IMG/VR virus record: IMGVR_UViG_3300012936_000005
Span: 21,043-85,042 of that record
Origin: a virus
Reading direction: 5' to 3' (one strand)
Length of the DNA: 64,000 bases
Shown here: piece by piece, positions 313-20,809 of the stretch
Layout: the number at the start of each line of letters is the position of its first letter
Numbering within the stretch: position 1 is the first letter of the stretch
Position numbers and translations under genes: made by a program
The notes under the pieces: model-generated
Told to the model about the DNA's origin: nothing
The model's database searches: none
The model's input: only the letters and a program-made list of their open reading frames with translations

Positions 313-957
313 TTATTCCTCCTCAACTTTATATACTTCTTCAAAACTAGGTCGATTATAAATTTGATCTATGTTTTTTCTATCATAGGGCACACTTTTC
401 ATAGCATTAGTTCTAGGATCTAAATATTCTAGTTCGTTACTAGCATATCCTACTCCTAATATTAAACGTATAGGATTATCGACTCCGAACAGTTCTGCAC
501 ATCTTTCAGGATCATGACTGCAATTTTGTGTTATACCTGTGCTAAGTCCTCTATCTTGTAATGCTAACATTATAAATGCGGCTTGAATACCAAATTCTAA
601 ATGGTCATATCTATCAACAGCCGTTGATGTTCTGTTATAAAATTGGTATTGTACTTCTGCTTTAGTAACATCTCTTTGTGAAAATCCAATTAGATAAGGT
701 GCTAGAACTTGCGGATTACCATAATCAGTTTCGATAGGCATTTCATCATTGCGATGACAAATTGTCATTATTTCTTTTCTACGATTAGGCTCATCATTCT
801 TAATACATTTAATAACAAAAGGATATTTTAGATTTTTTGTAGGAGCTTGCATATAAGCATCATACATTGCATCTTTTATTAATTGTACATCTACTTCCTT
901 TGTATAATCCCAAGTATAAGTATTAGTCCTTGCTTTTATTACATCGTTAAATTGCAT
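313..957 (-). CDS. nitroreductase-family flavoprotein
   Basis: Motifs IKARTNTY (R-x-S/T-like), QAPTKNLKYP, EFGIQAAFIMLALQDRGLST and LILGVGY fit the nitroreductase fold. Start moved to MQFND (957), which has an AAGGA SD; the track's 1053 start overlaps the upstream gene by about 100 nt. Confidence 0.75.
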   Translation of the reverse strand: MQFNDVIKARTNTYTWDYTKEVDVQLIKDAMYDAYMQAPTKNLKYPFVIKCIKNDEPNRRKEIMTICHRNDEMPIETDYGNPQVLAPYLIGFSQRDVTKAEVQYQFYNRTSTAVDRYDHLEFGIQAAFIMLALQDRGLSTGITQNCSHDPERCAELFGVDNPIRLILGVGYASNELEYLDPRTNAMKSVPYDRKNIDQIYNRPSFEEVYKVEEE

Positions 958-2062
958 TAAGTTTCCTTTTTGGTATTTTTGAATCTGCACTTGAAACACA
1001 ACTTTCAGTGATACAAGGCATTGCTTTTTCAAACAGTTTAAATCCTGTTTCAATATTTCCTAAAGGAACATCACCGCAACTGTAACTGCGTTTTATACTA
1101 CCGTCTGGTTCACGTATAATTATACCTTGATATCCAGCATTACAATTCCAACCTTTAAACTTGTTAAAATTGAAAGCATTGAATCTTTCTGCTTGATCCA
1201 TATAATATTTATTGCCCTTACTATCTTCCATTTCTACTTGAAAGTGAGGAGGTATAGTTTCTTTTGTATTAAACTCACTCCACTTTTTAAATTTAGCTTT
1301 TGGTCGGTCTGCCCATTTACGTTTGTTTTCTGTATATGCACGTTGAGGCATACCATTATGTAATTTCGCTAATTGTTCTTCCGTATAACCATCAACAACA
1401 AAACTAGCAGTAGGATCACTTTGTGGCTTTAGTGTTACATTAATTCCTTGTTCATGGAAAAACAGTGCATTATCCCAATCCCTTTCAAACCAAGCAGGAA
1501 CCATTACCATGTTTATTGTAACCTGTACATCATGCTCTTGGCAAAATATAAGTTTGTCTGCAAACTCCTGCATTTTTACAGGTGTGTTTACGTGTTCAGT
1601 ATGTAGACTTGCAGTAATACTAGCTCTATGAAATGCTTTAGCATATTCAACATAAGTTTCAAACCAATTAATTTTACGTGAACAATTTGATGTCATATGT
1701 ATACTTGTATAATTTGTATTTTCTACGTCATCGGCGAGATATTTGAGAATGTCCAAGTATCCTGGATGAAAGGTAGGCTCACCCCCTGACAAAGAAAAGT
1801 GAAATGAATTGAAACCGTTTCCTCTGGCTTGTCGCTTGATTTCGTCAATAGTTCGAAGACACAACTCGGTTGGTCTGTGATCTTTTCTGTCACTTCTTGC
1901 GTATGGCCAACAGTAGCTACACCTATAATTACAAAAGCGACCAAGCAACCAACTAACCGTAAATACGTCACGATAGAGCAAAGTGCGTTGGCCCACACTG
2001 ACAATATCCTCAAGTGGTATTTTTGTAAAGTCATAATTACTCCATTTTAAATCTTGAGTCAT
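947..2062 (-). CDS. radical SAM protein (subfamily C) with C-terminal Cys-rich SPASM/twitch-like region
   Basis: CNYRCSYC (CxxxCxxC), SGGEPT, TSN; C-terminal FKGWNC...SC...C...C; paralog of 4103..5275. Confidence 0.9.
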   Translation of the reverse strand: MTQDLKWSNYDFTKIPLEDIVSVGQRTLLYRDVFTVSWLLGRFCNYRCSYCWPYARSDRKDHRPTELCLRTIDEIKRQARGNGFNSFHFSLSGGEPTFHPGYLDILKYLADDVENTNYTSIHMTSNCSRKINWFETYVEYAKAFHRASITASLHTEHVNTPVKMQEFADKLIFCQEHDVQVTINMVMVPAWFERDWDNALFFHEQGINVTLKPQSDPTASFVVDGYTEEQLAKLHNGMPQRAYTENKRKWADRPKAKFKKWSEFNTKETIPPHFQVEMEDSKGNKYYMDQAERFNAFNFNKFKGWNCNAGYQGIIIREPDGSIKRSYSCGDVPLGNIETGFKLFEKAMPCITESCVSSADSKIPKRKLNAI

Positions 2063-2067
2063 AGTTT

Positions 2068-2096
2068 ATTATAGCACCTTATGTTAATTTTGTCAA
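2068..2096 (-). promoter_or_regulatory. perfect sigma70-type promoter for the 2062 radical SAM gene
   Basis: Minus strand TTGACA-aaattaacataaggtgc (17 nt)-TATAAT, then 5 nt to ATG. Confidence 0.85.
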
Positions 2097-2101
2097 TCAT
2101 T

Positions 2102-3043
2102 TTATAACTTCTCTTTGATAAATTGATCTCTTTTATTTTCTTTACATACTTGTTCGCAACGTGGTATTTTGTTTTCTGCTGTCCAACTATTTTTTATATC
2201 AGTCCAAACTTTTCCGTTCATAGCCTCAGCAATACTTACATTAGATAAGTTTATATCTGTCATATAATCTTGTTGTTCGAGTATATCTTCAAATTTATCA
2301 TGCTTATGTCCACTGACAGGATACTCTAGCATTTTAGAATTTAAATGACAGCAAGGAATTACGTTGCCCATATGATTCACAAAGATACGTTTTTGATTAG
2401 CATATTTACAGCTAATACAATTAGATTCTTCTACTTCAGTTTTTTTATGTTTTACGCCGCCTGTGTCTTTCCTATGACTTATTATAGTTTGAAATTTTAC
2501 AAACCCTTCCTGCTTGGCTAGTTCTCTTGCTTCTTCTAATTGGTGTTCATTATGTTCGAAACTAATAAATTGCCAATTTGATTTTCCTCCTGCCGCGATA
2601 AATGCCCTATAGTTTTGTTGTACTTTTTTAAAGTTTGATCCTTCTCTATATCTTTCTGATAATTCATCACTACCATCTATACCCCAAGTTACTCTGTGCG
2701 AAGACGGTAAAATGTTTGCTAATTTTTCCCACCATTTTGTTGTGCGTAAACTACCGTTAGTAGCAATATTAATATGTGCGTTCCAGTCTGCAAAATGTTC
2801 TATAATTTCGTGGAACTGAGGATGACTACAAGGCTCATCTACACTACCACAGAAATTAATTATCTTGATATTAGGAAACATTTCTTTTTGAAACTTTTCT
2901 TTAATAGTATTAAGATCTAAATACGTCTTGTTTAAGATTTTGTCAGCATGATCAGAAATAACACGGAAACAGCCTTTGCAACGAATATTACAAAAACTTG
3001 TAAGTTCTATGTCAATCCATTCTAGTGTATCAGTTGTTAACAT
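2102..3043 (-). CDS. radical SAM protein (subfamily A)
   Basis: CNIRCKGC, GSVDEP, TNG, WGIDG, WQFISFEHNEHQ, C-terminal C...PCC...C...C. Confidence 0.9.
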   Translation of the reverse strand: MLTTDTLEWIDIELTSFCNIRCKGCFRVISDHADKILNKTYLDLNTIKEKFQKEMFPNIKIINFCGSVDEPCSHPQFHEIIEHFADWNAHINIATNGSLRTTKWWEKLANILPSSHRVTWGIDGSDELSERYREGSNFKKVQQNYRAFIAAGGKSNWQFISFEHNEHQLEEARELAKQEGFVKFQTIISHRKDTGGVKHKKTEVEESNCISCKYANQKRIFVNHMGNVIPCCHLNSKMLEYPVSGHKHDKFEDILEQQDYMTDINLSNVSIAEAMNGKVWTDIKNSWTAENKIPRCEQVCKENKRDQFIKEKL

Positions 3044-4110
3044 TATTCAAAGCACCACGGTATAGTTTTTTTACTATTTGTTCCTCTTTTTGCATCTAGA
3101 TCTAATAGATACCTTTGCATAGTTGCATTACCCTCTTTATCAAATTTATAATCTTTATAGAATGTTTTAAGCTCTTGTACTTTTGTTAATTGTAATACTT
3201 TCTGCACAACATGAGGCTTCAAACAATTTACAGATAGAAAATTAGGACTATAAAGTTTATGTATATCATAAGTACCATTCCATTTTCTCCGTATCTTTGT
3301 TACTACTTTATCTACGTTTGGCAAATTCATTGCTTGTACAGTAATATTAAAACTAATATTCATAGGATTTAGATCTACTAATTGCTGAGTATCTCGACAA
3401 AATATATCATGATGTGTAGGAAATCTAATTAATTCGTTAACAGAACCCCAGCCGTCTATACTTACTGAAAAAGTAAGTCTTTCAAATTTTTCTAATGTTT
3501 TTAAAAAACTATCTGTGTTACTTACACCATTAGTTTGTATTTGAATTTCTGTATGCTTACGATTCCATTCATGTTCTGATAATAACTTACAAAATCGTTG
3601 AACACCTTTCATATAAAAAGGCTCTCCACCTGCAATATATATTTTTACAGCTTTATCCTTGCATCTTTCATATACCCAATCCCAATCTAAAGACTCCCTA
3701 ACCTGTCTAAATTGATCAATATTGCCTGTACGGTATTTAGAATATACATCTAAATCTTCATACCATTTACTACTATTACCAGGATTACACATGGCACATT
3801 TTAAGTTACAAGTGTTTCCAGGACGTAAATCCCAAACAATAATTCCCTTATCACCTCTAAGTAAACTCTGCTGTCGCTTACTTTCTCTACCCATAGATTC
3901 GTTCATTACACAGTCATTACATTCAGGTCTTTTCCAATCTCCTTTAAATCTTTCTCTGACTTCATTTATATAATCATTATCTAACAATTCATTTATATCT
4001 TTTACAGTATGTTTTCCTTTTTGCTTGAAAAGACAACAAGGCGTAGTAACATAGCCGCTGTCTTTTTTTTGTATATATAAACTGTTAATTGATTCTAAAC
4101 AATTATGCAT
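3043..4110 (-). CDS. radical SAM protein (subfamily B, N-terminal Cys-rich twitch-like domain)
   Basis: N-terminal C...PCC...CNDC, then CNLKCAMC, AGGEPF, TNG, SIDG, IRFP. Confidence 0.9.
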   Translation of the reverse strand: MHNCLESINSLYIQKKDSGYVTTPCCLFKQKGKHTVKDINELLDNDYINEVRERFKGDWKRPECNDCVMNESMGRESKRQQSLLRGDKGIIVWDLRPGNTCNLKCAMCNPGNSSKWYEDLDVYSKYRTGNIDQFRQVRESLDWDWVYERCKDKAVKIYIAGGEPFYMKGVQRFCKLLSEHEWNRKHTEIQIQTNGVSNTDSFLKTLEKFERLTFSVSIDGWGSVNELIRFPTHHDIFCRDTQQLVDLNPMNISFNITVQAMNLPNVDKVVTKIRRKWNGTYDIHKLYSPNFLSVNCLKPHVVQKVLQLTKVQELKTFYKDYKFDKEGNATMQRYLLDLDAKRGTNSKKTIPWCFE

Positions 4111-5275
4111 TTAACACACCAGTGTCAAAATGTGTTTTGACTGTTTGTAAATATTTTTCTTTAAATTTGCTTTTAGGAGCACACAACCCACAACCACAAG
4201 TATGCTTAGGGCAAATCATTGTTGGCATGGTTTTCGATTCTAATTTATGTTTAAGCTCTGCAATAATTTTTTGTCCTTCACTAATTTTTCCAATTGGTCC
4301 TCTAGTACCGTCAAAACGAGCTTGACAAGTTTGATGATGAAACACTTGATCAGTTTGTTGTTCAAGATGTAAAAAGAACCAGTTTACACTACAATGCCAA
4401 CCTTTAAATTCACGCATGTTAACAAAATTACTTTTTTTACTTGTATCTCCAGAACTTAAACACATTTCTCTTCCGCCGCAACACGGTCTTCCTAGACTCA
4501 TTCCTAATTTTTTCTTTTCGGTTGTTTTTTCGCCTACTGCACTTAACTTATCGTTGTTCAATCCTTCTTCTTTGTACTTCCAATAATTTTTAATAAAATC
4601 TAGTTGATCGTCAGTGTATTTGTGTGCAAAACTAGGTTTGCTATCAGGCTCTTCACCTATTATTCTTGGCACATACCACACACCTAATTGATCTAACCAC
4701 TTGCATAATTCTTTGCACTCGTCAAAATACTGTGCATGAAACATTACATTTACTTTGAATCCAAAATACTTTTTACCGTTAGAATTTTTTGCGGCTTCTG
4801 ATGCTGTATGGAATTGCATAATTCTATCTTTTATTTGATTTTTAAGTTTTTGATCTGCTTCAGTATGATAACTTAGTGTAACAAAACTCATCTTGTCTAT
4901 AATTTGTTGAGCAATTTTAGGACCCATTGCTCCGTTGCTTGTAAGAGAGAATCCAGTGTGCCATCTATCTCTATATCTTTTGTTATATTCTTCTTTTAAG
5001 TATTCAATAAAAGGAATAAAGTTGGGGTTGACTGTAGGCTCTCCTCCTGTAAAACTTATACTTGCTTCTTTAAAATCTCTGTACTGCATATACGTGTCCA
5101 TATATTCAAATAAAAAATCAACACTAGACTTCAATTGATCTAGTGTAGCATGTGGACTAAAATTATCGTGTCTTGTTACTGGGCAGTACGTACAGTCATA
5201 ATTACATCTGCGACCAAGATCCCATGAAACTTGGAATAAATTTCCTGTCAATAAATCTACAGTATCAAAGCTCAC
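4103..5275 (-). CDS. radical SAM protein (subfamily C)
   Basis: WDLGRRCNYDCTYC, TGGEPT, TSNG, FKGWHC, C-terminal CPKHTCGCGLC. Confidence 0.9.
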   Translation of the reverse strand: MSFDTVDLLTGNLFQVSWDLGRRCNYDCTYCPVTRHDNFSPHATLDQLKSSVDFLFEYMDTYMQYRDFKEASISFTGGEPTVNPNFIPFIEYLKEEYNKRYRDRWHTGFSLTSNGAMGPKIAQQIIDKMSFVTLSYHTEADQKLKNQIKDRIMQFHTASEAAKNSNGKKYFGFKVNVMFHAQYFDECKELCKWLDQLGVWYVPRIIGEEPDSKPSFAHKYTDDQLDFIKNYWKYKEEGLNNDKLSAVGEKTTEKKKLGMSLGRPCCGGREMCLSSGDTSKKSNFVNMREFKGWHCSVNWFFLHLEQQTDQVFHHQTCQARFDGTRGPIGKISEGQKIIAELKHKLESKTMPTMICPKHTCGCGLCAPKSKFKEKYLQTVKTHFDTGVLNA

Positions 5276-6665
5276 TGAAAATATCCTTCATTTCAGGAAA
5301 AGTTTCTGCAAAAGTATTCCCGCGTTGAGTGTCGCACCTTTTTAGAAACTCTTGCATTTCTGGCAGACGTCTACTCCAATCTTCACTTTCCATAAAATTA
5401 AGCATACCTTTTAGCCTTTTAATCCCATAGCTTGCTTGCATGAAGTCGTCTTTTTGTACTTTACCTTTGTGCCAACTAGGAATTCCTAGTTCCCAATTTT
5501 CTTCCCACCAAGGATAAAATTCTTCATATTTCTTACGGCACTCAGCCTTAAACCAATTAGGCAAAACTTTTACATTTAAGTGCGGTGGATGATATACAAA
5601 GTGATAATTCACTCCTCCTGCACCAAATGGCCACATGTTAATTTTTTTAAATCCTTGTGTCAGTTTCCATTTTATAAAATCGGGTATATAGTAAATGTTG
5701 AGTGCTTGTACTGCACAAGCCACAGTAACTTCAGTGTTGTTAGGTGTATCATTATCTAGTATATGAAAAACTTCTTCCTGTCTTTTCCATTTACTAGGAT
5801 AACGAATATATTCATTCATTTCTTTTATGCTATCAATGCTGTAATGAAAACGAACTAATTTAAAATGTTTCCATAGGTCAAACAAATCTTCGCGCCATTC
5901 AACTCCATTACTATTATACCTAAGCTCTAAATTTTTAGCATATCCCATTTTAATAGCATGTTCAAGTATTTCATAATGTTCTTCAATAATTAAACTTTCG
6001 CCACCAGCAAAATATATCTGTTGCATACTTGGCATCTGCTCGTAAAATTGTTTCCAGAATGTAGGATTTTGTTTGTGCCAATTATAACTACTTCCATTTG
6101 TACTACCTTTGTCTTGCCACTGCATTGTTTCTTTTAGTGATTCATTTTTTACTGCCGGAAACATTGCTTTCCAATCTTTAATCCAACCTGAACTATCGTG
6201 AGGTGAACACATTACACAAGCAAGTTGACACTTGGTTCCAAATCGTAAATCAATATATGCTAACTGAGGAGGTACGCTACCATCTTCTTTTGTGTTCTCT
6301 AAAAGATTATCTACATCAACACGCTCACTCCAATATGCTGTTTCCCACATACGTTTACTGTTATGACCAGCCGCTTCTTCTTTGAAACATTTTATACAAC
6401 TAGGTGGTACTTCTCCGTTCAGCATTTGTTTACGTACATTACGCATATATGTACTGTTCCATGCTGTTTCAAAATCACTTACATTAAGATTATTAGGACG
6501 TCCTTCTTCATCTTTAAGAATTCCAACTTGGCCGCCATGCTCTTTGTCATTAGTTGGTCCTACAGAACTTGCGTTCGCTGTACAACAAACTCTCATACTT
6601 CCGTCTGGTCTTGTGCTTAGGTGTACCCACGGTAGGATACAAAATGTATCTGAAACTTTACTCAT
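5265..6665 (-). CDS. radical SAM protein (subfamily B)
   Basis: FCILPW...CC...CIKC N-terminal domain; CQLACVMC; AGGES; NSNG; SIDS; YIRYP. Confidence 0.9.
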   Translation of the reverse strand: MSKVSDTFCILPWVHLSTRPDGSMRVCCTANASSVGPTNDKEHGGQVGILKDEEGRPNNLNVSDFETAWNSTYMRNVRKQMLNGEVPPSCIKCFKEEAAGHNSKRMWETAYWSERVDVDNLLENTKEDGSVPPQLAYIDLRFGTKCQLACVMCSPHDSSGWIKDWKAMFPAVKNESLKETMQWQDKGSTNGSSYNWHKQNPTFWKQFYEQMPSMQQIYFAGGESLIIEEHYEILEHAIKMGYAKNLELRYNSNGVEWREDLFDLWKHFKLVRFHYSIDSIKEMNEYIRYPSKWKRQEEVFHILDNDTPNNTEVTVACAVQALNIYYIPDFIKWKLTQGFKKINMWPFGAGGVNYHFVYHPPHLNVKVLPNWFKAECRKKYEEFYPWWEENWELGIPSWHKGKVQKDDFMQASYGIKRLKGMLNFMESEDWSRRLPEMQEFLKRCDTQRGNTFAETFPEMKDIFSEL

Positions 6666-6673
6666 ATATGTAC

Positions 6674-7699
6674 TTATCGTGTTATAGTGGTGGTTAATTG
6701 ATGTACTGGCTCAAATCGTTGTGTAGAAATCTTATTTTCTTTGCAATTTTCTATACACTTAGGAAAAATTCCGCTTTTAATATTATAGAATATATTAGTA
6801 TACCATTCACTATCAAATATATCCTGTATGCTGTTTGAACCGTTTAATCTATGATGTTCAGAGCCATTTTCTTTGCTGTAAAGATCCCATAAATCTTTGA
6901 ATCCGCTTTTTGTTCCCCACCAACAACACGGTACAACATATCCTTGATGCGTAATATATAAACCTTGATCATCTATTTTACTACTGATGCATTTTGGTAA
7001 AACTTTAGGCAACACGTCAAAAGTTTCTCCTTTTGGATCTTTTTTATGTTGACTGTTCTCTCCAAAGTTTTTACGTGGGCTACCAATAAATTTAACTCTA
7101 TGAAATCCTTCTTTTTTTGCTATGTCTTCTATTAAGTTAGCTTGGTGTTCATTGTGAGCAAAGAAAATAAATTGCCATATTGCACAGCCGCCGGCCGCAA
7201 TATATGATCTAAAATTATTTTGTGTTTTTTTCCAGTCAACATTTACTCTGTAAATATGGTTAGTATCTTCAAGACCATCTAAACCAAAATTAACATGTAA
7301 TCGCCAATTATACTTCTTTGAAAGTTGTCCTAATTCTTTCCAGAATTCTGTATTACGTGTTCCGCCATTAGTAGAAACAGTAATTTTTGGTTTGCTAGGA
7401 AATAATTTATCATTTTCGAAAATCCATTTTATAATATCTAATAAGTCTGGATTAGTAGTAGCTTCGTCATAATTACCACACATATGAATAAGTCTTAGAT
7501 CAGTCCATACATCTTTGGATACCCAACTTTTAAATTTTTCTAAACTGACGTATGTGTCATTTATAGTAATCCTATAGTCCATATCTGCCGACCAGTCACT
7601 TACAACTGCTCTTGCACAGGCAGGACATGCGGCATTGCAATAATTTGACATTTCTATTTGTAATTTTGTTTGATTTTTAACAGGTATTTGCCAACTCAT
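6674..7699 (-). CDS. radical SAM protein (subfamily A)
   Basis: CNAACPAC, CGNYDE, TNGG, GLDG...NHIYR, WQFIFFAHNEHQ, PCC. Confidence 0.9.
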   Translation of the reverse strand: MSWQIPVKNQTKLQIEMSNYCNAACPACARAVVSDWSADMDYRITINDTYVSLEKFKSWVSKDVWTDLRLIHMCGNYDEATTNPDLLDIIKWIFENDKLFPSKPKITVSTNGGTRNTEFWKELGQLSKKYNWRLHVNFGLDGLEDTNHIYRVNVDWKKTQNNFRSYIAAGGCAIWQFIFFAHNEHQANLIEDIAKKEGFHRVKFIGSPRKNFGENSQHKKDPKGETFDVLPKVLPKCISSKIDDQGLYITHQGYVVPCCWWGTKSGFKDLWDLYSKENGSEHHRLNGSNSIQDIFDSEWYTNIFYNIKSGIFPKCIENCKENKISTQRFEPVHQLTTTITR

Positions 7700-8742
7700 T
7701 TTTGTTCTACCTGTACATTCTGATATGCTTTATGTGATGCACACGTTCTAATACATCTTCTCAAATGTTTATTGTGTGATGGATTCCAGCTTTCTTCTAA
7801 AACTTTTTCATAGTAAGGATGTTGCATAATCTGTTCTATACTATTTAATCTAAGACTATTCCAGCCTGTTTGAAATTCACTTAGTTTTTCTAGAATATTT
7901 TCTTTATTTTTAAATGCACTATCCCACAAAAAACAGCATGGCCACATTTCCTGTTTAGCACTTATAAATATTTCTCCTTCATGCACATACTTGCAAACTA
8001 TGGTGTCAATAACTTTTTTATCTATTTGATTGTTTTGCATAAGACTATCTAATTTGTAAACTTCTTCTCTGCGATCATGTTGTTTATTACCTGTTGTGGT
8101 TATTACCTTTTTTTCTTTGTTACTTTTCTTTCCTATTTCTGCCACCCAATTATAGTAACTATTACGCATGCCTGTTCTAATAAAAAATTTTAATCCTAAT
8201 TTTTCTGCGTGTGCTTTTGCCGCTTCTATTTCTTGTTCATTATGATCAAATACAATAAAAGTCCATTTATTTTTATTAAATTCTCCTTTGTAACTATTTT
8301 CTGCATATGCTTCAAGATTTCTTTCAATAACATTAAATTTAGTATTAACTCTGTAAATATGATTTGTTTCTCTGTGTCCATCGATACATGCTTGCAAAAT
8401 AAAATTCTTGTGATATTTCTTGCTTAGTAATCCTAAATCATACCATATGCTCTTTGTACCTACACCAGTATTGGTGCTAATAGTTACTATCGCACCGTTT
8501 GATAACAAATATTCAGTGATATCAATGACTTGAGGATGTATCATAGGATCTCCTAATACTCCGCAAAGTCTAATATCTTTACCATCAATATGTTTTTTAG
8601 TAGGTAATATACGTTTTAGATCATCAAGAGAAAAATCTACCACTTCTAGTATATCTCTATTAAGTGTCCTTGCACAACCAGGACAAGCGGCATTACAGTC
8701 ACTTGTAATTTCTAATTCAATTTTTTTAATTCTGTCTATCAT
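7696..8742 (-). CDS. radical SAM protein (subfamily A)
   Basis: CNAACPGC, CGVLGDP, IDG...NHIYR, WTFIVFDHNE, PCC, CIRTC. Confidence 0.9.
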   Translation of the reverse strand: MIDRIKKIELEITSDCNAACPGCARTLNRDILEVVDFSLDDLKRILPTKKHIDGKDIRLCGVLGDPMIHPQVIDITEYLLSNGAIVTISTNTGVGTKSIWYDLGLLSKKYHKNFILQACIDGHRETNHIYRVNTKFNVIERNLEAYAENSYKGEFNKNKWTFIVFDHNEQEIEAAKAHAEKLGLKFFIRTGMRNSYYNWVAEIGKKSNKEKKVITTTGNKQHDRREEVYKLDSLMQNNQIDKKVIDTIVCKYVHEGEIFISAKQEMWPCCFLWDSAFKNKENILEKLSEFQTGWNSLRLNSIEQIMQHPYYEKVLEESWNPSHNKHLRRCIRTCASHKAYQNVQVEQK

Positions 8743-9806
8743 TTGAACTGCTCTGCAAACGGGTCAAACTCTGCACCACACTTCATAGCACAAACTTTTA
8801 ATTTTCCTTCTCCGCAAGTTGGCTTCGACCAACTATCTTGTATTGTGTTAAATATACCTGTCTCAAAAACTTTATCTAATCCAGAACGTGCATCTAATGC
8901 ATTTTTGTTAGGAATAAAGTCCCATATTTGTTCTACTTTAGGATCTTTATGCCACCACTTGTACATGCGTCCTGCTGTCCAACAACAAGGCAAAGCTAAA
9001 CCTTCTGCTGTTATATATAAACTATTTTCTTTTTTAACTTTACATATAATAGGAGCCGCATCATAATATGCATCCATACTACCATATTTTTTAATAATAA
9101 TGTCTTGTTTTTGTAATGCTTTATTTTGATATTTTTTATCAGGTTTTCTTAATTGTGTTGTTTCTTTACCTTTCTTATCAACTGCTTGATGTGATTCTTT
9201 TTTCTTACTATCTTGTGTAATAAAACGTCCTGTCTTTTTTGCAGTAAATTTTTCAAAACCTTTTTGCTTACTTAATTTTTCTGCTTCTTCTACTTGATGT
9301 TGATTGTGTTCAAAAATTAAAAAGTCCCAACGAGCTCGACCGCCTGCTTCTATAAAAGCGTCCATACTACGCTCTACATTGTTCCAGTTAACGCCTTGGC
9401 GATATAAATGATTAGTATCACGAAGACCATCAACGCTAAAAATAACAGACCCCATCCGACCAAAAATTGTTGCCAGGTTGCTCCACCATACTTCATCTCT
9501 TGCTCCTGCATTTGTATTCATACTTAGCCACATGTTTTTATTGTGTTCTCTAAAGTATGCAAATATTTCTAATGTATCTCGTGCAACAATAGGGTCACCT
9601 AGATTGCCACACATATACATAGTGTCAAGTTGCTTGATAAATTTAGGAGAAAATATCTTCTTACAATCTTCTAATGACAATTCATCTAAATTAATATGTG
9701 GATTTACACCTTGACCGTTACAATTTCTATCACACATAGGACAAGCCGCCTGGCAATTTTGTGTTACCTCTAGATGTATAGTTTTTATGTCTTTGTAAAA
9801 ATACAC
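8739..9806 (-). CDS. radical SAM protein (subfamily A)
   Basis: CQAACPMC, CGNLGDP, FSVDG...NHLYR, WDFLIFEHNQHQ, PCC, CAMKC. Confidence 0.9.
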   Translation of the reverse strand: MYFYKDIKTIHLEVTQNCQAACPMCDRNCNGQGVNPHINLDELSLEDCKKIFSPKFIKQLDTMYMCGNLGDPIVARDTLEIFAYFREHNKNMWLSMNTNAGARDEVWWSNLATIFGRMGSVIFSVDGLRDTNHLYRQGVNWNNVERSMDAFIEAGGRARWDFLIFEHNQHQVEEAEKLSKQKGFEKFTAKKTGRFITQDSKKKESHQAVDKKGKETTQLRKPDKKYQNKALQKQDIIIKKYGSMDAYYDAAPIICKVKKENSLYITAEGLALPCCWTAGRMYKWWHKDPKVEQIWDFIPNKNALDARSGLDKVFETGIFNTIQDSWSKPTCGEGKLKVCAMKCGAEFDPFAEQFK

Positions 9807-10327
9807 TATGTTAGTACCCTTTGCATTGATAAAACTATTTTTAATTGTGATGTATAAAATGCATCTACTCCATGATATCCGTTAGCTATATACCATGCGT
9901 CAGCATCTAAATATTTGAAGTGTAATCCGTTTTTGTTTTTAATTACTGCTATATTTTTTAAATGTGCATCTTGATTAACAAAAAATCTGTTATCGTTCCA
10001 TTCACTACTTAATCCCATTGATGCTGTCCATGTATGATTAATACATTTGAACAGTCTTATATAATCTGCTTTAGTTAAGACTTTACTCTTATGCGGTTCT
10101 AATAGTTTGTACAAATCTGTTTCGATGCCCTCTAAATATTCCATTGAGTATGTATGCTCATCTATTAAATCTATTATCTTTACAATATGAGGAGTTCTAT
10201 TTTGCAGATTTTTATAACAACGAAACCATTCTTTAGTAAGTGGCTTTCTTTTTAGAGTCTTAATTAAAATATTATTTTTAGTATCATGTACTATCCTAGA
10301 TACATCTGTGTTCCATATTTCTTTCAT
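9806..10327 (-). CDS. short protein-kinase-like (APH/Kdo/choline-kinase-type) phosphotransferase
   Basis: LIK (beta3 Lys), MEYLEG hinge, QDAHLKNI catalytic-loop-like, YLD Mg-binding-like. Confidence 0.55.
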   Translation of the reverse strand: MKEIWNTDVSRIVHDTKNNILIKTLKRKPLTKEWFRCYKNLQNRTPHIVKIIDLIDEHTYSMEYLEGIETDLYKLLEPHKSKVLTKADYIRLFKCINHTWTASMGLSSEWNDNRFFVNQDAHLKNIAVIKNKNGLHFKYLDADAWYIANGYHGVDAFYTSQLKIVLSMQRVLT

Positions 10328-11028
10328 TATTTTACGCCAATTCTCATAAATCTATTATACTTTGGCAACTCTAAGGATCCTGAATAAAAGCAGTCCATCA
10401 TTGGAGATTGTTCTTTAAATTCCAAAGGATTTTTTACACAATTTACGTGATCCTTCACATCGAAAAAATTGTTAGATTGTAAAACAACTAAGGTACCATT
10501 TGGTATTTTTTCATACCACTTATTAAATTCTTTGATATGTTCACAACTTGTATTGATCACAGTATCAGGACAATCTGTTATATCTCTACTCATTCTGTTA
10601 TTAGCTTTGCTCCAAGTTTGCCAAGTATGTTTATTATAATCAATATCCATTATATCTTGCGTTATTGCTTTGAATTGCCAATCTTTTTTTACTTGATTGC
10701 GATTTATTGTATCTGCTATTTCTAAACAACTATCGTCTATGTCAAAACTTCTAATTTTATCTATTGAGCAACGACTTCTAAACAACATGGCCGCAAGTGT
10801 AGCATACCAACCAGCACACAAAAATACAGTTCCTAATGGCACATCAATATCTTCTAAAGTGTTAACTAACCATCTTTTGCTTTTAAGTTGTCCCCAACTT
10901 AAAGCATCTGTCAAATCAGCTTTATGATTATCCACAGCATTACGCAAATTATTGAATATAGGATTGTCAGTTAGAACTAACATCCTTCCAAAAATATCGT
11001 TATCGTCTTTCCAATTAATGCTCATCAA
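10327..11028 (-). CDS. class I SAM-dependent methyltransferase-like protein
   Basis: GQLKSKRWL, VFLCAGWYA (motif I-like), SFDID (motif II acidic), VINTSCEH. Confidence 0.6.
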   Translation of the reverse strand: MMSINWKDDNDIFGRMLVLTDNPIFNNLRNAVDNHKADLTDALSWGQLKSKRWLVNTLEDIDVPLGTVFLCAGWYATLAAMLFRSRCSIDKIRSFDIDDSCLEIADTINRNQVKKDWQFKAITQDIMDIDYNKHTWQTWSKANNRMSRDITDCPDTVINTSCEHIKEFNKWYEKIPNGTLVVLQSNNFFDVKDHVNCVKNPLEFKEQSPMMDCFYSGSLELPKYNRFMRIGVK

Positions 11029-11698
11029 ACTTTTTCCTTAGCCATTCAAAATCATTTATTAACCCAAGATCAGCCCCGCTAGAAAGGCCAAACTGCATAC
11101 CATCCCTAGCACCTCTAATCGCAAATTCACCAAACTCTCTATCGTGTCCCACGGTTGTCCAAGTTTTAAGTCTTCCATTTGTTTCTTGCTCCTTTTGTCT
11201 ATCTATTGTTTTACTTGATAGTTTAGCACATTCTCTAAAAGCACTTTTCCAAGTATTAAAAGGATCTGTGTTGAATGCTGTTATATTACTTACTTCGTTC
11301 ATAACTTTAAATTTATCACTTATGCTTGTAGTCATATCGTTAGTATTTGTATCCATATTTTTTGTTAATGTAGTTGGAAATAATTTTACACCTCCATAAC
11401 CATAAACAAGATCATTAATTGGATTCATACATCTGTATACATGAACTAGATCCTTTTCTTCTGTAGTGTATCCAAAATTAAATTCATCTACAATTACAGC
11501 ATCTCCATCAACTACATAAAAGTAACTTGAGTTTGCAAGTTTGGCCGCTTCTACATGTGCGTTATGAATGCCTTTAACATCTTTTACACGTTTTACTCTA
11601 TCACCAAATACTCCGACAGTATTGAATCTTGAATAAAGATTGTTATAATTTTCTTCTGCATTTGGTTCGTGATAGCTTATAAAAATAATATCATACAT
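11015..11698 (-). CDS. GT-A fold (GT2-like) glycosyltransferase
   Basis: DIIFISYHE, GIHNAH, VVDGD (DxD), YGYGGVKL, W..AFRE; paralog of 13058..13978. Confidence 0.65.
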   Translation of the reverse strand: MYDIIFISYHEPNAEENYNNLYSRFNTVGVFGDRVKRVKDVKGIHNAHVEAAKLANSSYFYVVDGDAVIVDEFNFGYTTEEKDLVHVYRCMNPINDLVYGYGGVKLFPTTLTKNMDTNTNDMTTSISDKFKVMNEVSNITAFNTDPFNTWKSAFRECAKLSSKTIDRQKEQETNGRLKTWTTVGHDREFGEFAIRGARDGMQFGLSSGADLGLINDFEWLRKKFDEH

Positions 11699-13058
11699 TT
11701 TTACAAATCTCCAAAAATTGTTCGTACTCAGGAAAAACCTTTACAAAATTTACATCTCTTCTTTTGTCATATTGTTTTGTAAACCTAAAAAACATTTTTT
11801 GAGCTTCTTGCTGTTCTTTCCAAAAGTCGTCTTTGTTTTTAAGTCTGTGCTCTACATCTGATACAATGCGTTCTAGCTTTACAGTCTCAATCTGTTTGAA
11901 GCCATGATGGTCTGTGTTTTCTTGCATAAATTTTAATGCAGGTTTTAAATAATCATCTACCACTTGTTCATTTGCTATTTTAACATCTAAGAATGCAGGA
12001 TTTCGCACATACGGAATGTCAATTAGTATCCTTTGGTTTCCTGGATGCCTACCCCAATATGTTGACTTTAAATATAGCACCCAGATCAAAAACGACTTGA
12101 ATGTTGGTAAACTATAAATGTTAAAAGCACTCATGAAACTTATTTTACTTGCAGTATGTCTTGCAAAGTATTCGATGTTATCAGTAAACAATCGCCAGTC
12201 CATACCAAATCTACTATATTCTGCTTGAGTACCTGTACTTTCTGCACTTGTGTATAAACAAAATTCTCTAATAGCATTTGAATCTTCTAACTTCTTTATA
12301 GACTTTGTAAATCTTTTCCATAAATCTTTAGGTGGGCATCCATTACTGTTAATTGCAAATTTTAAATTGGGTTGCGGATGTTCAATTAAGTAATCAATCA
12401 CTCTTTGAGTATGTTTACTTAACAGAGGTTCTCCTCCTGTAATACGGAAAGTATGCATATGTTTTACTGCTTCTGGAAACCATTTCCAAAATGCTTCAAT
12501 ATATGGATTATCTTCACGCTCAGGTATAGGCGTTTCGTTAGGATCAATCATATTGTATGCCCAAGTGTTTAAATCATATGGTCCTTTTTGCTTAACTTCT
12601 TCCATCCATTTACTACTAAATGGCGGACCACAATATGCACATTTGAAATTACATACATTACTAAAACTAATTTCTACATATCTAGGATAAAAATCTTCGT
12701 CTCCTGTAAAGTTGCTAATTGTATCGTAATCGCTCCAACTAAACGCATCAGCACTTTTGTAAACTCTATCACTAAACTTATCTGTGTTGTCTTCGATACG
12801 CCAGCAGTAATCGCACTCGCCTGGGCGTTCATTTTTTAGCATTTGCTTTCTTACATTTTTTTTGAAGCCTGTATTATGAAGTGCATTAGGATTTTTTGCA
12901 AGTTCATCTAAATCAATCCTATGTGCTTTTACATGATGACAACTATGATTTATACCTGTGCCTAAGTGAATTGTAACTTGTGTCCATTTGGCAAGACAAA
13001 ATCCGCACCCAACTTTATCTAGTTTTTCTTTAACTTCTATTGGTTCACCTTTAAGCAT
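11691..13058 (-). CDS. radical SAM protein (subfamily B)
   Basis: FCLAKW...SCHH...CDYCW N-terminal domain; CNFKCAYC; TGGEPLL; NSNG. Confidence 0.9.
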   Translation of the reverse strand: MLKGEPIEVKEKLDKVGCGFCLAKWTQVTIHLGTGINHSCHHVKAHRIDLDELAKNPNALHNTGFKKNVRKQMLKNERPGECDYCWRIEDNTDKFSDRVYKSADAFSWSDYDTISNFTGDEDFYPRYVEISFSNVCNFKCAYCGPPFSSKWMEEVKQKGPYDLNTWAYNMIDPNETPIPEREDNPYIEAFWKWFPEAVKHMHTFRITGGEPLLSKHTQRVIDYLIEHPQPNLKFAINSNGCPPKDLWKRFTKSIKKLEDSNAIREFCLYTSAESTGTQAEYSRFGMDWRLFTDNIEYFARHTASKISFMSAFNIYSLPTFKSFLIWVLYLKSTYWGRHPGNQRILIDIPYVRNPAFLDVKIANEQVVDDYLKPALKFMQENTDHHGFKQIETVKLERIVSDVEHRLKNKDDFWKEQQEAQKMFFRFTKQYDKRRDVNFVKVFPEYEQFLEICKNV

Positions 13059-13978
13059 TAATTTTCCTTATCAATGAACTGCTGGTTGCCGCCTCTGCTT
13101 GGATTTTGATAAACAGTTTTAAAAAAAGAGCTTTGTTCTTCGTTGAGAGGTTGTATTGAAATAGGTATTTCTAAATTGTTTACTAAATCACTTCCGTAAT
13201 TAAAAATTTCTGTATGTAAAACATCTTCGGGCATTTGATCACGTCCTGCCCAGAGATTGTTAAGATATTCAAAGTCTCGTACATTTACATAATCCCAATC
13301 ACTTAACATAGTCATACTAAGTCCTTCTCTGGCTCCTAATATGGCCCAGTTTCCGTTTTGTACATCTGCTCCTACCATTAACCAAATCCATAGTCTATGT
13401 AAATTTTTCCAGTGTCCTTTTAAGAACTCTTCTTTGGTCGGCTTGACTCCTCTGTCAAGTGCCATTTTTACACCTTCACGAAATCCTGCTCGCCAAGCCT
13501 GATGTGGAGTTTCGTTATTATGTACATCTGAATAACAACTGTTTTGTTGAATATACTGTAGGTCCCAACAAAAATCAACCTGTGCAGACTGATTATTAGG
13601 ATCAGCGTTTTCGTGTGTACGCATATTTAACACAAATTCTTTAGGCCAACATTTTAATCCGCCGTTACCATACATCAAACCGTTTATACTATTTTTTCCG
13701 CACCAACTAATCACACTGTTGGCTAAGTCTGTATGTTCGTCAAAATCTAAAACTTGGTTTATAAAATCTTGACGAATTGTGTTATCGCCGTCGACTGTTA
13801 CAAATCTATCTGTTTCTGATAATTCAGCACAGGCTTTATGTGCCGCATCTGACCCTTCTACACCGTGTACTCGTTTTGCCCAAGGAACTTTTGTAAGTAG
13901 ATCAGCATAATTTTTTTCAGCATTTGGTTCGTCATAGCTTAGGTATATTATATCTAATTCTGCAATTTTAACTTTCAT
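13058..13978 (-). CDS. GT-A fold (GT2-like) glycosyltransferase
   Basis: DIIYLSYDEPNA, GSDAAHK, TVDGDN (DxD), YGNGGLK, WRAGFREG. Confidence 0.65.
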   Translation of the reverse strand: MKVKIAELDIIYLSYDEPNAEKNYADLLTKVPWAKRVHGVEGSDAAHKACAELSETDRFVTVDGDNTIRQDFINQVLDFDEHTDLANSVISWCGKNSINGLMYGNGGLKCWPKEFVLNMRTHENADPNNQSAQVDFCWDLQYIQQNSCYSDVHNNETPHQAWRAGFREGVKMALDRGVKPTKEEFLKGHWKNLHRLWIWLMVGADVQNGNWAILGAREGLSMTMLSDWDYVNVRDFEYLNNLWAGRDQMPEDVLHTEIFNYGSDLVNNLEIPISIQPLNEEQSSFFKTVYQNPSRGGNQQFIDKEN

Positions 13979-14520
13979 TATAACTCCTTATACATACAAG
14001 TTGCCATATCGCAATTAGCGTAAACACTGTATGGTCCTTTTATATTTAAAGGTTTAGATTCGTTCGATGCAATGTTAAATGTAAGTTGTTCATACAAAAT
14101 ATGGGGGTCACCTTTTTTTGTAAAACTAAAACTTATTTCTTTTTGTAGATCAACATTTGTAGTTTTCATTGTATCTAATAGTTCAATACCCGTATTAATA
14201 TAACATCTTTTGGTAACTTTGTCAACAGTCAATAACAGATCGTACATGATTGATTCGTCAACTGGTTTAATTTCAATGAATTTTGCTTCATGTTGTACAT
14301 AGATATTTTTCTTAAGTACAAATTTCTTATCACTACGATTATAAGCAACAACATAGTCTGTCATTTTTTCTTTCAAACTTTTAATAGGTTCTACTTCTTC
14401 TTCAGTAACTTTTATGTGTTGGTATCCTTCTTCTATACTAGGACCTATACTAAAAATTCTTCCAGTCTTTTGATTGAAGCATACATATTGTTGTGTATGT
14501 GTGCTAACGTGATGCATCAT
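13978..14520 (-). CDS. hypothetical protein
   Basis: 180-aa ORF coupled to both neighbours, GGAG SD. Confidence 0.7.
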   Translation of the reverse strand: MMHHVSTHTQQYVCFNQKTGRIFSIGPSIEEGYQHIKVTEEEVEPIKSLKEKMTDYVVAYNRSDKKFVLKKNIYVQHEAKFIEIKPVDESIMYDLLLTVDKVTKRCYINTGIELLDTMKTTNVDLQKEISFSFTKKGDPHILYEQLTFNIASNESKPLNIKGPYSVYANCDMATCMYKEL

Positions 14521-15313
14521 ACTCTCCTATAATATCTTCAGCAAATTTTTGTTCAGTGTAATGAACTATACCATGTTGCATAAAATTTCCTATTTTTAAA
14601 TTAAAGTCTTCATCTAAATAATAAGGTATCCTATCTAACCAGTTTTCTGGAGGGTTTGACCATCCTTGTATTTTACTTTTCATATGTACGAAGCTAGGAG
14701 ACTTTACAGTATAATCTTCTATGTTGTTTTCTAGTATAGCAATAGAATGATTTACATCCATGCTACTTAATTTAGGTATTTGTTTAGGTGCATAAATTTC
14801 ATAATATTTTTCGTAATTTTCACATATGCGATTCAAAGTTTTATAATACTCTAATGCTGTATCATCTTTTTTAAAATAATGAAATGCACAGTAAATGTTT
14901 GGCAGACTATTTGCTGTAAAAGCCTTTCGATAATAATCATTATCAATAAGATGATTTCTGTAATCTCTTACATTAGAAATAAATCCAATACTTTTTTGTG
15001 CAAAATATTTCCACCAGTAACTAATGTCAGATAAAAATATCATATCAGTATCTAACACAACTGTTTCTTCATACGGAGTTAAATGAAATACTTTCCATCT
15101 ATGCTCTGTCTTATAGAAACTTTTTGCGTGTTTGTCGTGCCACGGAACTTCTATAATTTTATCAAATAGTCTTTTGTATCTTCTTGGCACTCTATCACTT
15201 GTAACAAGAGAAATGTTTTTTATAGATTGTGTCTTTTTGATGCTCATCGCACATAAACATGCTTGTAGGACATAATTATCGCCCATAGCAACCATAATAT
15301 ATCCTTTATCCAT
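14504..15313 (-). CDS. GT8-like glycosyltransferase
   Basis: Y...A.LCAMSIK, LVTSD, FDKII, TPYEETVVLDTDM (DxD), FVHMK, HY. Confidence 0.7.
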   Translation of the reverse strand: MDKGYIMVAMGDNYVLQACLCAMSIKKTQSIKNISLVTSDRVPRRYKRLFDKIIEVPWHDKHAKSFYKTEHRWKVFHLTPYEETVVLDTDMIFLSDISYWWKYFAQKSIGFISNVRDYRNHLIDNDYYRKAFTANSLPNIYCAFHYFKKDDTALEYYKTLNRICENYEKYYEIYAPKQIPKLSSMDVNHSIAILENNIEDYTVKSPSFVHMKSKIQGWSNPPENWLDRIPYYLDEDFNLKIGNFMQHGIVHYTEQKFAEDIIGEYDASR

Positions 15314-16130
15314 TTATAAGTTCTCCTAGACTAAATTTATTCATTACATGAACATTACAGTCTTTTGTAGATGCTAGTATATATTCACCGTTGTATTTTT
15401 CTTTTTGCAATAAAAATGTAAGTGAGTTATCTTTAATTGTTTTTATGAAGTCTCTGTCTAGTGTATAGAACATAGTTCCTGGTAATGTTTTAGCCCAGTC
15501 ACTATCAGTAAATCCGTTCATCATATGGATAGCAATACTAAAGACATGGTCATTCCTAAAATTTCTACTTCCTATGTCATAAACTTGTTCATAGTGGTTC
15601 CAATTTTTAACCAAGTGTTGCAATAGATCAAAAAATATTTTTGTCTCATTTGTTTTTTTAAAACAAAAGCAAGTAGCCCAATAAAACGGAATTCCAGTAT
15701 TGTTTATAAAAGAGAATTCATCATGCTTGCGCCATTCACACAAATCTACTCCGTGCTTATAAATTTGAAAATCATTTTTGCTATCAAAGGCATGTTTTAA
15801 TGAATTATTACAAATTACATAATCTGTATCAAGAACTAATGTGCTTTCGTAAGGCGAAAGATCATAACTTTTTACTCTATCATTATTTTTAAATTGTAAT
15901 TGTTGATGATGCAAAGTACCGTTGTAATAACGTTTGTAATTAGAATTATTATCTTCTATCTCTATTACTTTGTCAAATAGACCAACATTTTGTAATTCAC
16001 TTGCTGTTGAAGTGACCAATGTAGTAGGCAAATCCAAATGTTTTTTCACACGTTCTGCAAGTATTTCTGCTTGCCTTAAATAATCTACTTTTCCGTTATT
16101 GTGTGCAAAACATAATACACCATTAGACAT
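15306..16130 (-). CDS. GT8-like glycosyltransferase
   Basis: SPYESTLVLDTDY (DxD), WAT, FRND, HVMNK; paralog of 14504..15313. Confidence 0.7.
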   Translation of the reverse strand: MSNGVLCFAHNNGKVDYLRQAEILAERVKKHLDLPTTLVTSTASELQNVGLFDKVIEIEDNNSNYKRYYNGTLHHQQLQFKNNDRVKSYDLSPYESTLVLDTDYVICNNSLKHAFDSKNDFQIYKHGVDLCEWRKHDEFSFINNTGIPFYWATCFCFKKTNETKIFFDLLQHLVKNWNHYEQVYDIGSRNFRNDHVFSIAIHMMNGFTDSDWAKTLPGTMFYTLDRDFIKTIKDNSLTFLLQKEKYNGEYILASTKDCNVHVMNKFSLGELING

Positions 16131-16470: not shown

Positions 16471-16506
16471 AGTTATACTCCTAGTTTATAGTATAACTAT
16501 TTACTC

Positions 16507-17421: not shown

Positions 17422-17440
17422 ATTACTTCCTTTTTAATAC

Positions 17441-18937: not shown

Positions 18938-18963
18938 TTATTAACCCCTAATTGTGTTATATG

Positions 18964-20808: not shown

Positions 20809-20809
20809 A

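Follow-up and report, generated by a model that had tools for sequence, protein, structure and literature searches.

A tail-fibre-adjacent island of radical SAM enzymes and glycosyltransferases in marine jumbo phages as a candidate sugar-editing pathway

The 64,000-nucleotide stretch of viral DNA analysed here (hereafter the window; bases 21043-85042 of the 85-kb IMG/VR virus record IMGVR_UViG_3300012936_000005) carries, directly behind its tail-fibre genes, a dense island of genes for radical S-adenosylmethionine (radical SAM) enzymes, glycosyltransferase-like proteins and a methyltransferase-like protein. Our leading interpretation, which we hold tentatively as plausible though not quite probable, is that this island encodes a pathway that builds sugars and edits them by radical chemistry on a cytoplasmic acceptor, and that the likeliest acceptor is a phage structural protein, either the tail fibres or a 5024-amino-acid protein encoded nearby. 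The sugar substrate, every individual reaction and the acceptor are what we infer from the observations below. Radical SAM arrays of this kind are already known from papers published in 2017 and 2020, neither of which tested function. Our additions are confirmation of the GT-A glycosyltransferase-like and methyltransferase proteins at the level of the fold, a gene-by-gene synteny with a cultured Ralstonia phage, conserved promoters and a phylogenetic tree.

A first-pass annotation, made from the nucleotide sequence alone, had read nine proteins with CxxxCxxC motifs as radical SAM enzymes, and this assignment held. The nine minus-strand open reading frames (ORFs), located between 947 and 13058, encode 10-14 cysteines each. 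Six of these proteins (947-2062, 2102-3043, 3043-4110, 4103-5275, 5265-6665 and 11691-13058) exceed the 29.5-bit cut-off of the Pfam Radical_SAM family (PF04055). The other three (6674-7699, 7696-8742 and 8739-9806) score 23-27 bits, below that cut-off, and we count them as radical SAM enzymes because they carry the CxxxCxxC motif and are paralogues of 2102-3043 at 25-32% identity. The set resolves into three N-terminal-twitch enzymes, four SPASM-type paralogues of about 350 amino acids, and two singletons (947-2062 and 4103-5275). The SPASM family of Pfam (PF13186, cut-off 21.5 bits) is matched by 2102-3043 and, on its N-terminal part, by 5265-6665 (21.6 bits), with no match at E 0.01 in the other paralogues. 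In the SPASM-class enzymes the CxxxCxxC motif begins at residues 16-21.

The N-terminal-twitch enzymes form the most distinctive part of the array. Three island proteins (5265-6665, 11691-13058 and 3043-4110) pass the 170-bit cut-off of NF033640 (N_Twi_rSAM) over the full length of the model, and the other six fall below it. The auxiliary cysteine cluster of these three lies N-terminal to CxxxCxxC: in an alignment of 14 diverse members, C9, C90 and C93 are invariant and precede C146, C150 and C153. Positions 5-70 of the N_Twi profile align with the C-terminal twitch domain of BtrN (E 0.003), and since the twitch precedes the core in N_Twi proteins and follows it in BtrN, the domain order is permuted. 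The island enzymes thus resemble SPASM/twitch enzymes of the BtrN and anSME types in combining a CxxxCxxC core with an auxiliary Fe-S domain, but differ from them in the forward placement of the N_Twi twitch and in scores far below the family cut-offs; 4103-5275, for example, matches the NCBIfam model for PapB at 7.8e-11, far below its cut-off. Searches of PDB sequences with 947-2062, 4103-5275 and 8739-9806 returned generic radical SAM cores or nothing. NF033640 is a sequence model only, for which we found no tested member, and it gives no substrate. Literature searches likewise returned nothing on what N-terminal-twitch radical SAM enzymes do, and no paper that connects them with Bdellovibrio.

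The first-pass annotation also listed two GT8-like, two GT2-like and one methyltransferase-like protein, and all five assignments were supported. A 13-member profile of the GT8-like pair (14504-15313 and 15306-16130) matches glycogenin-1 at E 4e-5 over residues 5-104, in an alignment that pairs the N-terminal motifs and sets DTD against DAD; the PDB match is limited to the first 100 residues, and Pfam gives no match for the pair even at E 1. For the GT2-like pair (11015-11698 and 13058-13978), in which a DGD motif is invariant, the evidence points to a GT-A fold. The AlphaFold2 (AF2) model of 13058-13978 (pLDDT 88) retrieves GT-A enzymes in Foldseek, headed by the capsid-glycan glycosyltransferase A64R of PBCV-1 (2.5e-4) and followed by the peptide S-glycosyltransferases SunS and ThuS, and VIA aligns about 135 of its residues with B4GALNT1, a Leptospira glycosyltransferase and STIV A197 at Z 10.6-10.0. 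Nucleotidyltransferases of GT-A-like fold reach Z 9, so glycosyl transfer by this pair is a predicted activity. Pfam PF00535 does not match the window proteins, gives E 0.02-0.2 for relatives, and has a precomputed match in two of 120 listed fused homologues (described below); a profile of the pair found nothing useful among PDB sequences. The AF2 model of 10327-11028 adopts a class I SAM-dependent methyltransferase fold: Foldseek returned at least 500 methyltransferases at E <= 0.001 (TM 0.5-0.68), with ChlM on top (5e-8) and NodS and RebM listed, and all of the top matches listed are enzymes of the SAM-dependent methyltransferase fold. No sequence model matches this protein, a profile search of PDB sequences gave nothing useful, and hhalign of its profile against one bacterial Methyltransf_11 protein gave nothing.

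Three features of this gene set suggested to us that sugar chemistry is involved. First, the arrangement of the glycosyltransferase genes is old. From 16507 down to 10327, the genes of the window follow the order seen in the cultured Ralstonia jumbo phage RsoM2USA (344 kb), at 29-47% identity: fibre, small ORF, GT8, GT8, small ORF, GT-A, N_Twi, GT-A and methyltransferase (RsoM2USA ORF355-347). Synteny across related phages had been proposed as a check of the first-pass annotation, and it shows that GT-A, N-terminal-twitch enzyme, GT-A and methyltransferase have been kept together in a soil Ralstonia phage and in phages of the ocean. The RsoM2USA locus lacks the rest of the radical SAM array; a second N-terminal-twitch gene, ORF202, lies elsewhere in that genome. 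From the shared block and the missing array we conclude that the glycosyltransferase block with one N-terminal-twitch gene is an old fibre-attached module, to which marine phages added a large variable array. All of the RsoM2USA counterparts (ORF347-355) are annotated as hypothetical, and the phage's own paper is silent on them.

Second, in at least 519 metagenome clusters one protein of 800-1200 amino acids unites both GT-A domains, a linker and the methyltransferase. Two separate GT-A genes flank the N-terminal-twitch gene in the window (11015-13978) and in RsoM2USA; in many marine relatives (for example L007:1210-4443 and L060:1315-3879) the GT-A domains are fused with the methyltransferase and the N-terminal-twitch gene lies in front. 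The fusion recalls A064R of PBCV-1, a three-domain protein that builds and methylates a capsid glycan. The likeness consists in a virus-encoded, soluble GT-A enzyme, in the union of two glycosyltransferases with a methyltransferase in the phage relatives, and in the rank of A64R as top Foldseek match; the difference lies in a sequence identity of only 12-14%, with low TM-scores (0.26-0.40). To our knowledge, no radical SAM enzymes take part in the virion glycosylation of PBCV-1, giant viruses or mycobacteriophages.

Third, the islands of related ocean phages carry accessory sugar enzymes, namely UDP-glucose/GDP-mannose dehydrogenase, CMP-sugar-type cytidylyltransferase, carbamoyltransferase and FkbM methyltransferase. 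Taken together, three things argue for sugar chemistry: the fixed place of an N-terminal-twitch gene between paired GT-A genes, the fusions of both GT-A domains with the methyltransferase, and the sugar-nucleotide enzymes that relatives encode. The match between the N_Twi twitch and that of BtrN, a sugar dehydrogenase, would further favour sugar editing.

Features of the island and of the neighbouring structural genes in the window. Identity in relatives refers to related ocean phage loci; med., median identity in relatives; rSAM, radical SAM enzyme.
Position	Strand	Feature	Evidence	Identity in relatives	Identity in Bdellovibrionota	RsoM2USA counterpart
1..312	-	3' part of a 252-aa left-arm ORF (contig 20596-21354)	no Pfam match	57-100% in 6 loci		
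313..1053	-	nitroreductase-like protein	Pfam Nitroreductase E 0.0014, 19.3 bits (cut-off 23.5)			
947..2062	-	rSAM 'w947', core gene, CNYRCSYC at residue 44	Pfam 52.2 bits	~80% in 53 loci (med. 80%)	63-67%	
2068..2096	-	perfect sigma70-type promoter, TTGACA-17-TATAAT with TG	in the sole sizeable island gap, 2063-2101			
2102..3043	-	SPASM-type rSAM, variable set	Pfam Radical_SAM 39 bits, SPASM 26.3 bits			
3043..4110	-	N-terminal-twitch rSAM, variable set	NF033640 194.4 bits			
4103..5275	-	rSAM, semi-core, weak PapB/anSME-like matches	Pfam 44.5 bits	~63% in 55 loci (med. 63%)	37-44%, some loci	
5265..6665	-	N-terminal-twitch rSAM 'w5265', most conserved island gene	NF033640 421 bits	83-100% in 80 loci (med. 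86%)	60-62%	
6674..7699	-	SPASM-class paralogue, variable set, CNAACPAC	Pfam 26.6 bits; 32% identical to 2102-3043			
7696..8742	-	SPASM-class paralogue, CNAACPGC	Pfam 23 bits	~51%		
8739..9806	-	SPASM-class rSAM 'w8739', core gene, CQAACPMC		~69% (med. 69%)	44-48%, adjoining w947 and w5265 homologues	
9806..10327	-	173-aa protein, earlier 'kinase-like'	no family match	rare, 3 loci		
10327..11028	-	class I SAM-dependent methyltransferase fold, core gene	AF2 pLDDT 85.7	med. 48%	37-42%, some loci	ORF347, 29%
11015..11698	-	GT-A-fold glycosyltransferase-like, second of pair, core gene	32% identical to 13058-13978	med. 58%	39-43%, some loci	ORF348, 41%
11691..13058	-	N-terminal-twitch rSAM between two GT-A genes	NF033640 302.4 bits			ORF349, 40%
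13058..13978	-	GT-A-fold glycosyltransferase-like, first of pair	AF2 model		39-43%, some loci	ORF350, 47%
13978..14520	-	180-aa protein	no family match			ORF351, small ORF of similar size, position only
14504..15313	-	GT8-like (glycogenin-like) glycosyltransferase	profile against glycogenin			ORF352, 36%
15306..16130	-	GT8-like glycosyltransferase, paralogue	25% identical to 14504-15313			ORF353, 36%
16123..16470	-	115-aa first island gene, no Cys		~40% in 12-13 loci		ORF354, small ORF, position only
16471..16506	-	fibre/island junction	GTAAATA, degenerate TTTATA-17-TATAAA, 8-bp hairpin (AGTTATAC/GTATAACT) over ribosome-binding site			
16507-22891	-	four tail-fibre-like genes	PHROG tail-fibre and tail-protein matches; paralogy			ORF355, fibre N-terminus, not a full-length match
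23523-38597	-	single ORF, 5024 aa	between baseplate wedge gene and fibre genes			
38597-42247	-	gp6-like baseplate wedge gene	upstream of island			

The island is widespread in the ocean and variable in content. IMG/VR, when scanned, yielded 290 stretches in which a homologue of 5265-6665 at 83% identity or more is encoded, and 80 of these loci were compared; the same protein has more than 2300 metagenome protein clusters, and island DNA is present in marine metagenomes from nine studies. Among the 1348 ORFs of the 80 loci are 301 N-terminal-twitch and 187 SPASM-class radical SAM genes as well as smaller 947-type and 4103-type families, so about four in ten ORFs encode radical SAM enzymes. A 256-kb relative has about 20 such genes, 12 of them above the N_Twi cut-off. 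Content is mosaic, with anchor genes that stay conserved (50-86% identity) while others come and go, as expected for a trait that acts in host interaction. Besides the sugar enzymes, the accessory genes of relatives encode oxygenases (Asp/Arg hydroxylases and TauD), a tryptophan halogenase, an AMP-binding enzyme and a thioesterase. One contig filed under a Chloroflexota metagenome-assembled genome (27.8% G+C, overlapping genes on one strand) encodes eight radical SAM proteins 41-70% identical to those of the island, and seems to be phage DNA that ended up in a bacterial bin.

Two published systems invite comparison. The hypervariable region next to the tail fibres of pelagimyophages is rich in GT8 genes and carries radical SAM cassettes; a host-surface role was proposed for it (Zaragoza-Solas et al., 2020, PMC7029224). 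Like the pelagimyophage and cyanomyophage regions described there, the island is fibre-adjacent, lies downstream of a giant structural gene, varies in content and contains GT8 and radical SAM cassettes. It differs in belonging to a phage of another lineage, whose nearest cultured relatives are jumbo phages and not HTVC008M or cyanophages, and in a much larger radical SAM load (10 genes here, counting one beyond the window); links to Bdellovibrionota and RsoM2USA are absent from that paper. A marine T4-like environmental viral genome with 12 radical SAM genes has also been reported (Nishimura et al., 2017, PMC5332604), in which these enzymes are discussed only as clients of phage-encoded Fe-S assembly genes, with no account of cluster anatomy, a glycosyltransferase link or cellular homologues.

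The window comes from a marine jumbo myovirus that is uncultured and has PA5oct, Atu_ph07 and RsoM2USA as distant relatives. CheckV puts the completeness of the record at 23%, and near-identical copies of its core radical SAM gene are encoded on contigs of up to 320-350 kb. The gp46-like protein has at most 48% identity to any cultured phage, with jumbo phages PA5oct, Phosso and Atu_ph07 as best matches, and at the DNA level neither the island nor the structural region matched any cultured phage in megablast searches. All genes from 1 to 50311 of the window are on the minus strand. An N-terminal part of about 300 amino acids is common to three of the four tail-fibre-like genes, and the first 1000 residues of the 5024-amino-acid protein are about 28% identical to a 'virion structural protein' of Atu_ph07, Phosso and PA5oct. 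This protein is a candidate acceptor for the island enzymes.

Neighbouring island genes overlap or adjoin each other, no gap being longer than 39 nucleotides, and they are co-oriented with and downstream of the fibre genes, just as the first-pass annotation described. Its statement that the cluster continues past the left edge was equally accurate: the island extends a further 7.9 kb, to contig base 13132. This left arm (contig 13132-21354) adds a tenth radical SAM gene, which binds B12 by prediction and best matches KedN5-type C-methyltransferases below the cut-off, together with a TauD dioxygenase (E 7e-27) and an Asp/Arg-hydroxylase-like gene. The arm also holds about eight unassigned ORFs of 190-250 amino acids, two pairs of which are paralogous; a 253-amino-acid ORF has no match in PDB or NCBIfam. 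Two further assignments of the first-pass annotation fared less well. The kinase-like gene, presumably 9806-10327, has no match in Pfam, PHROGs, NCBIfam or PDB sequences; a DAHLKN...DAD string is visible in it by eye only. The supposed nitroreductase, 313-1053, stays below the Pfam cut-off; two representative accessory proteins of related loci match the Nitroreductase family, at best with E 9e-6. Because the listed TTG start of 313-1053 overlaps 947-2062 by 107 nucleotides, the ATG at 957, which leaves a 9-nucleotide gap, is probably the real start. PHROGs gave no functional name for any island gene outside the radical SAM set. Within the island proteins, 19-residue hydropathy windows revealed no membrane-spanning stretch, the one exception being the motif I strand of the methyltransferase, and the acceptor should therefore be cytoplasmic.

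The island was originally described as joined to the tail-fibre operon. Adjacency and shared orientation stand; co-transcription is another matter. The perfect sigma70-type promoter in front of 947-2062 is present at the same position with 12 of 12 consensus bases in 15 of 28 relatives and with 10-11 of 12 in roughly six others, against a protein identity of only about 80%, and most relatives have TTGAC[AT]-17-TATAAT before the first island gene. Such promoters, at the island entrance and before 947-2062, argue against simple co-transcription with the fibres. The island thus looks, on this promoter evidence, like one or more transcription units of its own and not a simple late extension of the fibre operon, with read-through from the fibre genes possible. 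The late-type motifs noted earlier at 16498 and 6671 are not above chance, GTAAATA occurring 20 times against 23 expected. A promoter at 6671 was rejected: at this gene junction, which is conserved, the motif consists of the TAA stop of 6674-7699 and the GTA after it. For the T4 late promoter TATAAATA there are three occurrences against 11 expected; one copy sits 27 nucleotides before the fibre gene 17441-18937.

The structural genes carry (T/A)ATAAATA 25-34 nucleotides before their starts. Copies of (T/A)ATAAATA or GTAAATA 20-35 nucleotides before fibre and baseplate starts, all on the minus strand, lie at 18964-18971, 23520-23530, 42280-42290 and 42748-42754, and this motif is possibly the late promoter of this phage group, the cases being few. 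The ORF355/ORF354 junction of RsoM2USA (6300-6372 of stretch L163) has GTAAATA followed by a 9-bp hairpin (GGTTGCTAG/CTAGCAACC), which recalls 16471-16506 of the window. No RNA data set was listed as containing the island. Four metatranscriptome runs, from samples with the phage DNA, were compared with positions 1-20000 and gave contigs of good identity only at 17.1-20 kb, in the fibre genes; the island was represented only by short, partly fitting pieces, and these data, being contigs from libraries in which DNA may be present, are uninformative on its expression.

Cellular relatives of the island enzymes have a narrow distribution. In a scan of one genome per prokaryote species, N-terminal-twitch relatives occur almost only in Bdellovibrionota, and 14 model genomes contain no member of the family. 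Five Bdellovibrionota loci carry homologues of the core genes (see the table), at least one of which is clearly chromosomal given rpoD and dnaG beside it. Each of four Bdellovibrionota genomes has 10-25 N-terminal-twitch genes, some of them arrayed in tandem with a 947-type gene at the end. One Bdellovibrionales chromosome (1.9 Mb, about 33% G+C, near that of the phage) has sixteen, six of them in a row with 13-nucleotide overlaps and then a 947-type gene; AsnB, a fusion of ABC transporter and S9 peptidase, and phosphoglucomutase are encoded near this array. Across the Bdellovibrionota copies, Pfam context gave no consistent neighbour, the genes nearby including rpoD/dnaG, MoxR, S49 peptidase, LysR, carbamoyltransferase, AsnB, ABC + S9 peptidase, short-chain dehydrogenase/reductase (SDR) and phosphoglucomutase. 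A maximum-likelihood tree computed quickly for the 947 family, with SH-aLRT supports, no bootstraps and an assumed root, groups the phage orthologues in a single clade (100); Bdellovibrionota sequences make up the grade in which this clade lies (97, 100), and the paralogues branch outside. The nesting of the phage clade fits a single transfer, the donor probably being bacteria of the Bdellovibrionota type.

If the island encodes a pathway for sugar building and radical editing, the two GT8-like and two GT-A enzymes would transfer sugars from nucleotide-sugar donors onto a cytoplasmic acceptor, and the class I methyltransferase would methylate the product of this transfer. The radical SAM enzymes, comprising a fixed core (5265-6665, 8739-9806, 947-2062 and the glycosyltransferase-associated 11691-13058) and swappable extras, would use the 5'-deoxyadenosyl radical to edit sugars, for example by oxidation, epimerisation, deoxygenation, C-methylation or C-C bond formation, and the iron/2-oxoglutarate (Fe/2OG) oxygenases of the left arm may contribute to the same editing. 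A changing enzyme set would then give related phages chemically different surfaces. The first-pass annotation had proposed a glycan pathway directed at virion proteins, the host surface or phage DNA. Most of its enzyme classes were right, and sugar building and tailoring is its best-supported part, through synteny, fusions and the accessory sugar enzymes. Because the position behind the fibre genes has been kept despite widely different hosts, phage structural proteins would be the natural acceptor, and decoration of the virion, suggested by the fibre-adjacent synteny with RsoM2USA, is our leading guess and is put no higher. That the N-terminal-twitch enzymes are a new glycan-editing class, held as a swappable set from Bdellovibrionota-like bacteria and diversifying the sugars of the tail fibres, is a bolder proposal that we consider unlikely.

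Several observations weigh against a sugar-editing pathway for the virion. Neither the island proteins nor NF033640 have a known product, donor or acceptor. Most known SPASM/twitch radical SAM enzymes mature peptides, and the best, though weak, radical SAM matches found here are peptide maturases as well. In Bdellovibrionota, tandem N_Twi arrays adjoin a w947 homologue, and the stretch examined there contains no glycosyltransferase. The tryptophan halogenase, AMP-binding enzyme and thioesterase of relatives suggest small-molecule or peptide chemistry, and the sigma70-type promoters suggest early-type expression by host polymerase and not expression with the late fibre genes.

Some of these points lead to a reading that we regard as unlikely but the strongest of the alternatives, in which the radical SAM enzymes, hydroxylases, B12 C-methyltransferase and nitroreductase-like enzyme modify a protein encoded elsewhere and the glycosyltransferases then glycosylate the same protein. 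The modifications would be cross-links, epimerisations, methylations and hydroxylations, reminiscent of proteusin-like chemistry on peptides that are made by the ribosome and modified after translation, and the target a fibre tip, the 5024-amino-acid protein or a host protein. The best NCBIfam and PDB matches (PapB, YhhB/XyeB, SkfB and CteB) are peptide maturases, but all lie far below the family cut-offs. Asp_Arg_Hydrox matches in the left arm and in relatives, the halogenase and nitroreductase-like enzyme, the appearance of SunS and ThuS among the structural matches of the GT-A protein, and the S9 peptidase-ABC transporter fusion and AsnB beside Bdellovibrionota arrays would also suit it. 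Against this, the island has no precursor peptide gene and no gap above 39 nucleotides to accommodate one (the substrate may be encoded elsewhere), and the start of CxxxCxxC at residues 16-21 of the SPASM-class enzymes leaves no room for an N-terminal recognition domain, while Pfam scans gave no PqqD-type match. The retention of one N_Twi gene between two GT-A genes across very distant phages also speaks for glycan chemistry over this alternative.

Remodelling of the host surface during infection, with an O-chain, another glycan or the nucleotide-sugar pool as target and the blocking of superinfection as outcome, seems to us less likely still. The GT8 family includes lipopolysaccharide glycosyltransferases, and early-like sigma70-type promoters would fit an exclusion function. 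The role proposed for the GT8-rich, radical SAM-bearing, fibre-adjacent regions of pelagimyophages is of this type (PMC7029224). Yet the island proteins lack a membrane-spanning stretch, and library scans of the island recognised no flippase, polymerase, ligase or polyprenyl-phosphate transferase. The same glycosyltransferase block lies behind the fibres in phages whose hosts, a soil Ralstonia and a marine host, must differ greatly, and the Bdellovibrionota copies examined sit among housekeeping genes (rpoD, dnaG) with no evident polysaccharide locus.

A soluble sugar-derived small molecule, aminoglycoside-like or nucleoside-like and acting on the host or on competitors, is in our view improbable. 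All of the island enzymes are soluble, and the mix recalls aminoglycoside and nucleoside pathways, in which BtrN-like twitch radical SAM enzymes, B12 radical SAM C-methyltransferases, TobZ-type carbamoyltransferases, 2OG dioxygenases, glycosyltransferases and methyltransferases come together; but the window shows no recognisable gene for a cyclitol or scaffold synthase, an aminotransferase, an exporter or self-resistance, and the constant position behind the fibre genes would be left unexplained.

Hypermodification of phage DNA bases by glycosylation and tailoring is very improbable: phage DNA glycosyltransferases are typically expressed early, in keeping with the sigma70-type promoters, and thymidine hypermodification pathways include radical SAM, PLP and kinase enzymes, but searches of the island detected neither a nucleotide kinase nor a DNA-binding domain, and no thymidylate-synthase-like hydroxymethylase, TGT/DpdA or QueC was found in this record and three relatives (51-72% complete), the latter being weak evidence since the records are incomplete (23-72%). 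One related locus carries a thymidylate synthase-family gene.

Because part of the island is syntenic in RsoM2USA, a phage grown in the laboratory, the product of a sugar-editing pathway is now open to experiment, and the N-terminal-twitch gene locked between GT-A genes across distant phages, together with the core shared with Bdellovibrionota, adds to this testability. Few unexplained gene blocks in abundant ocean phages are as large as the radical SAM arrays, and even if their product is not a virion glycan, the island would still represent a large and widespread pathway. If the enzymes do diversify the sugars of tail fibres, they would offer these phages a post-translational means of altering receptor binding or of escaping recognition. 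Should virion proteins prove to bear a radical-edited glycan, phage surface chemistry would gain a new kind, and the NF033640 family a new enzymology.

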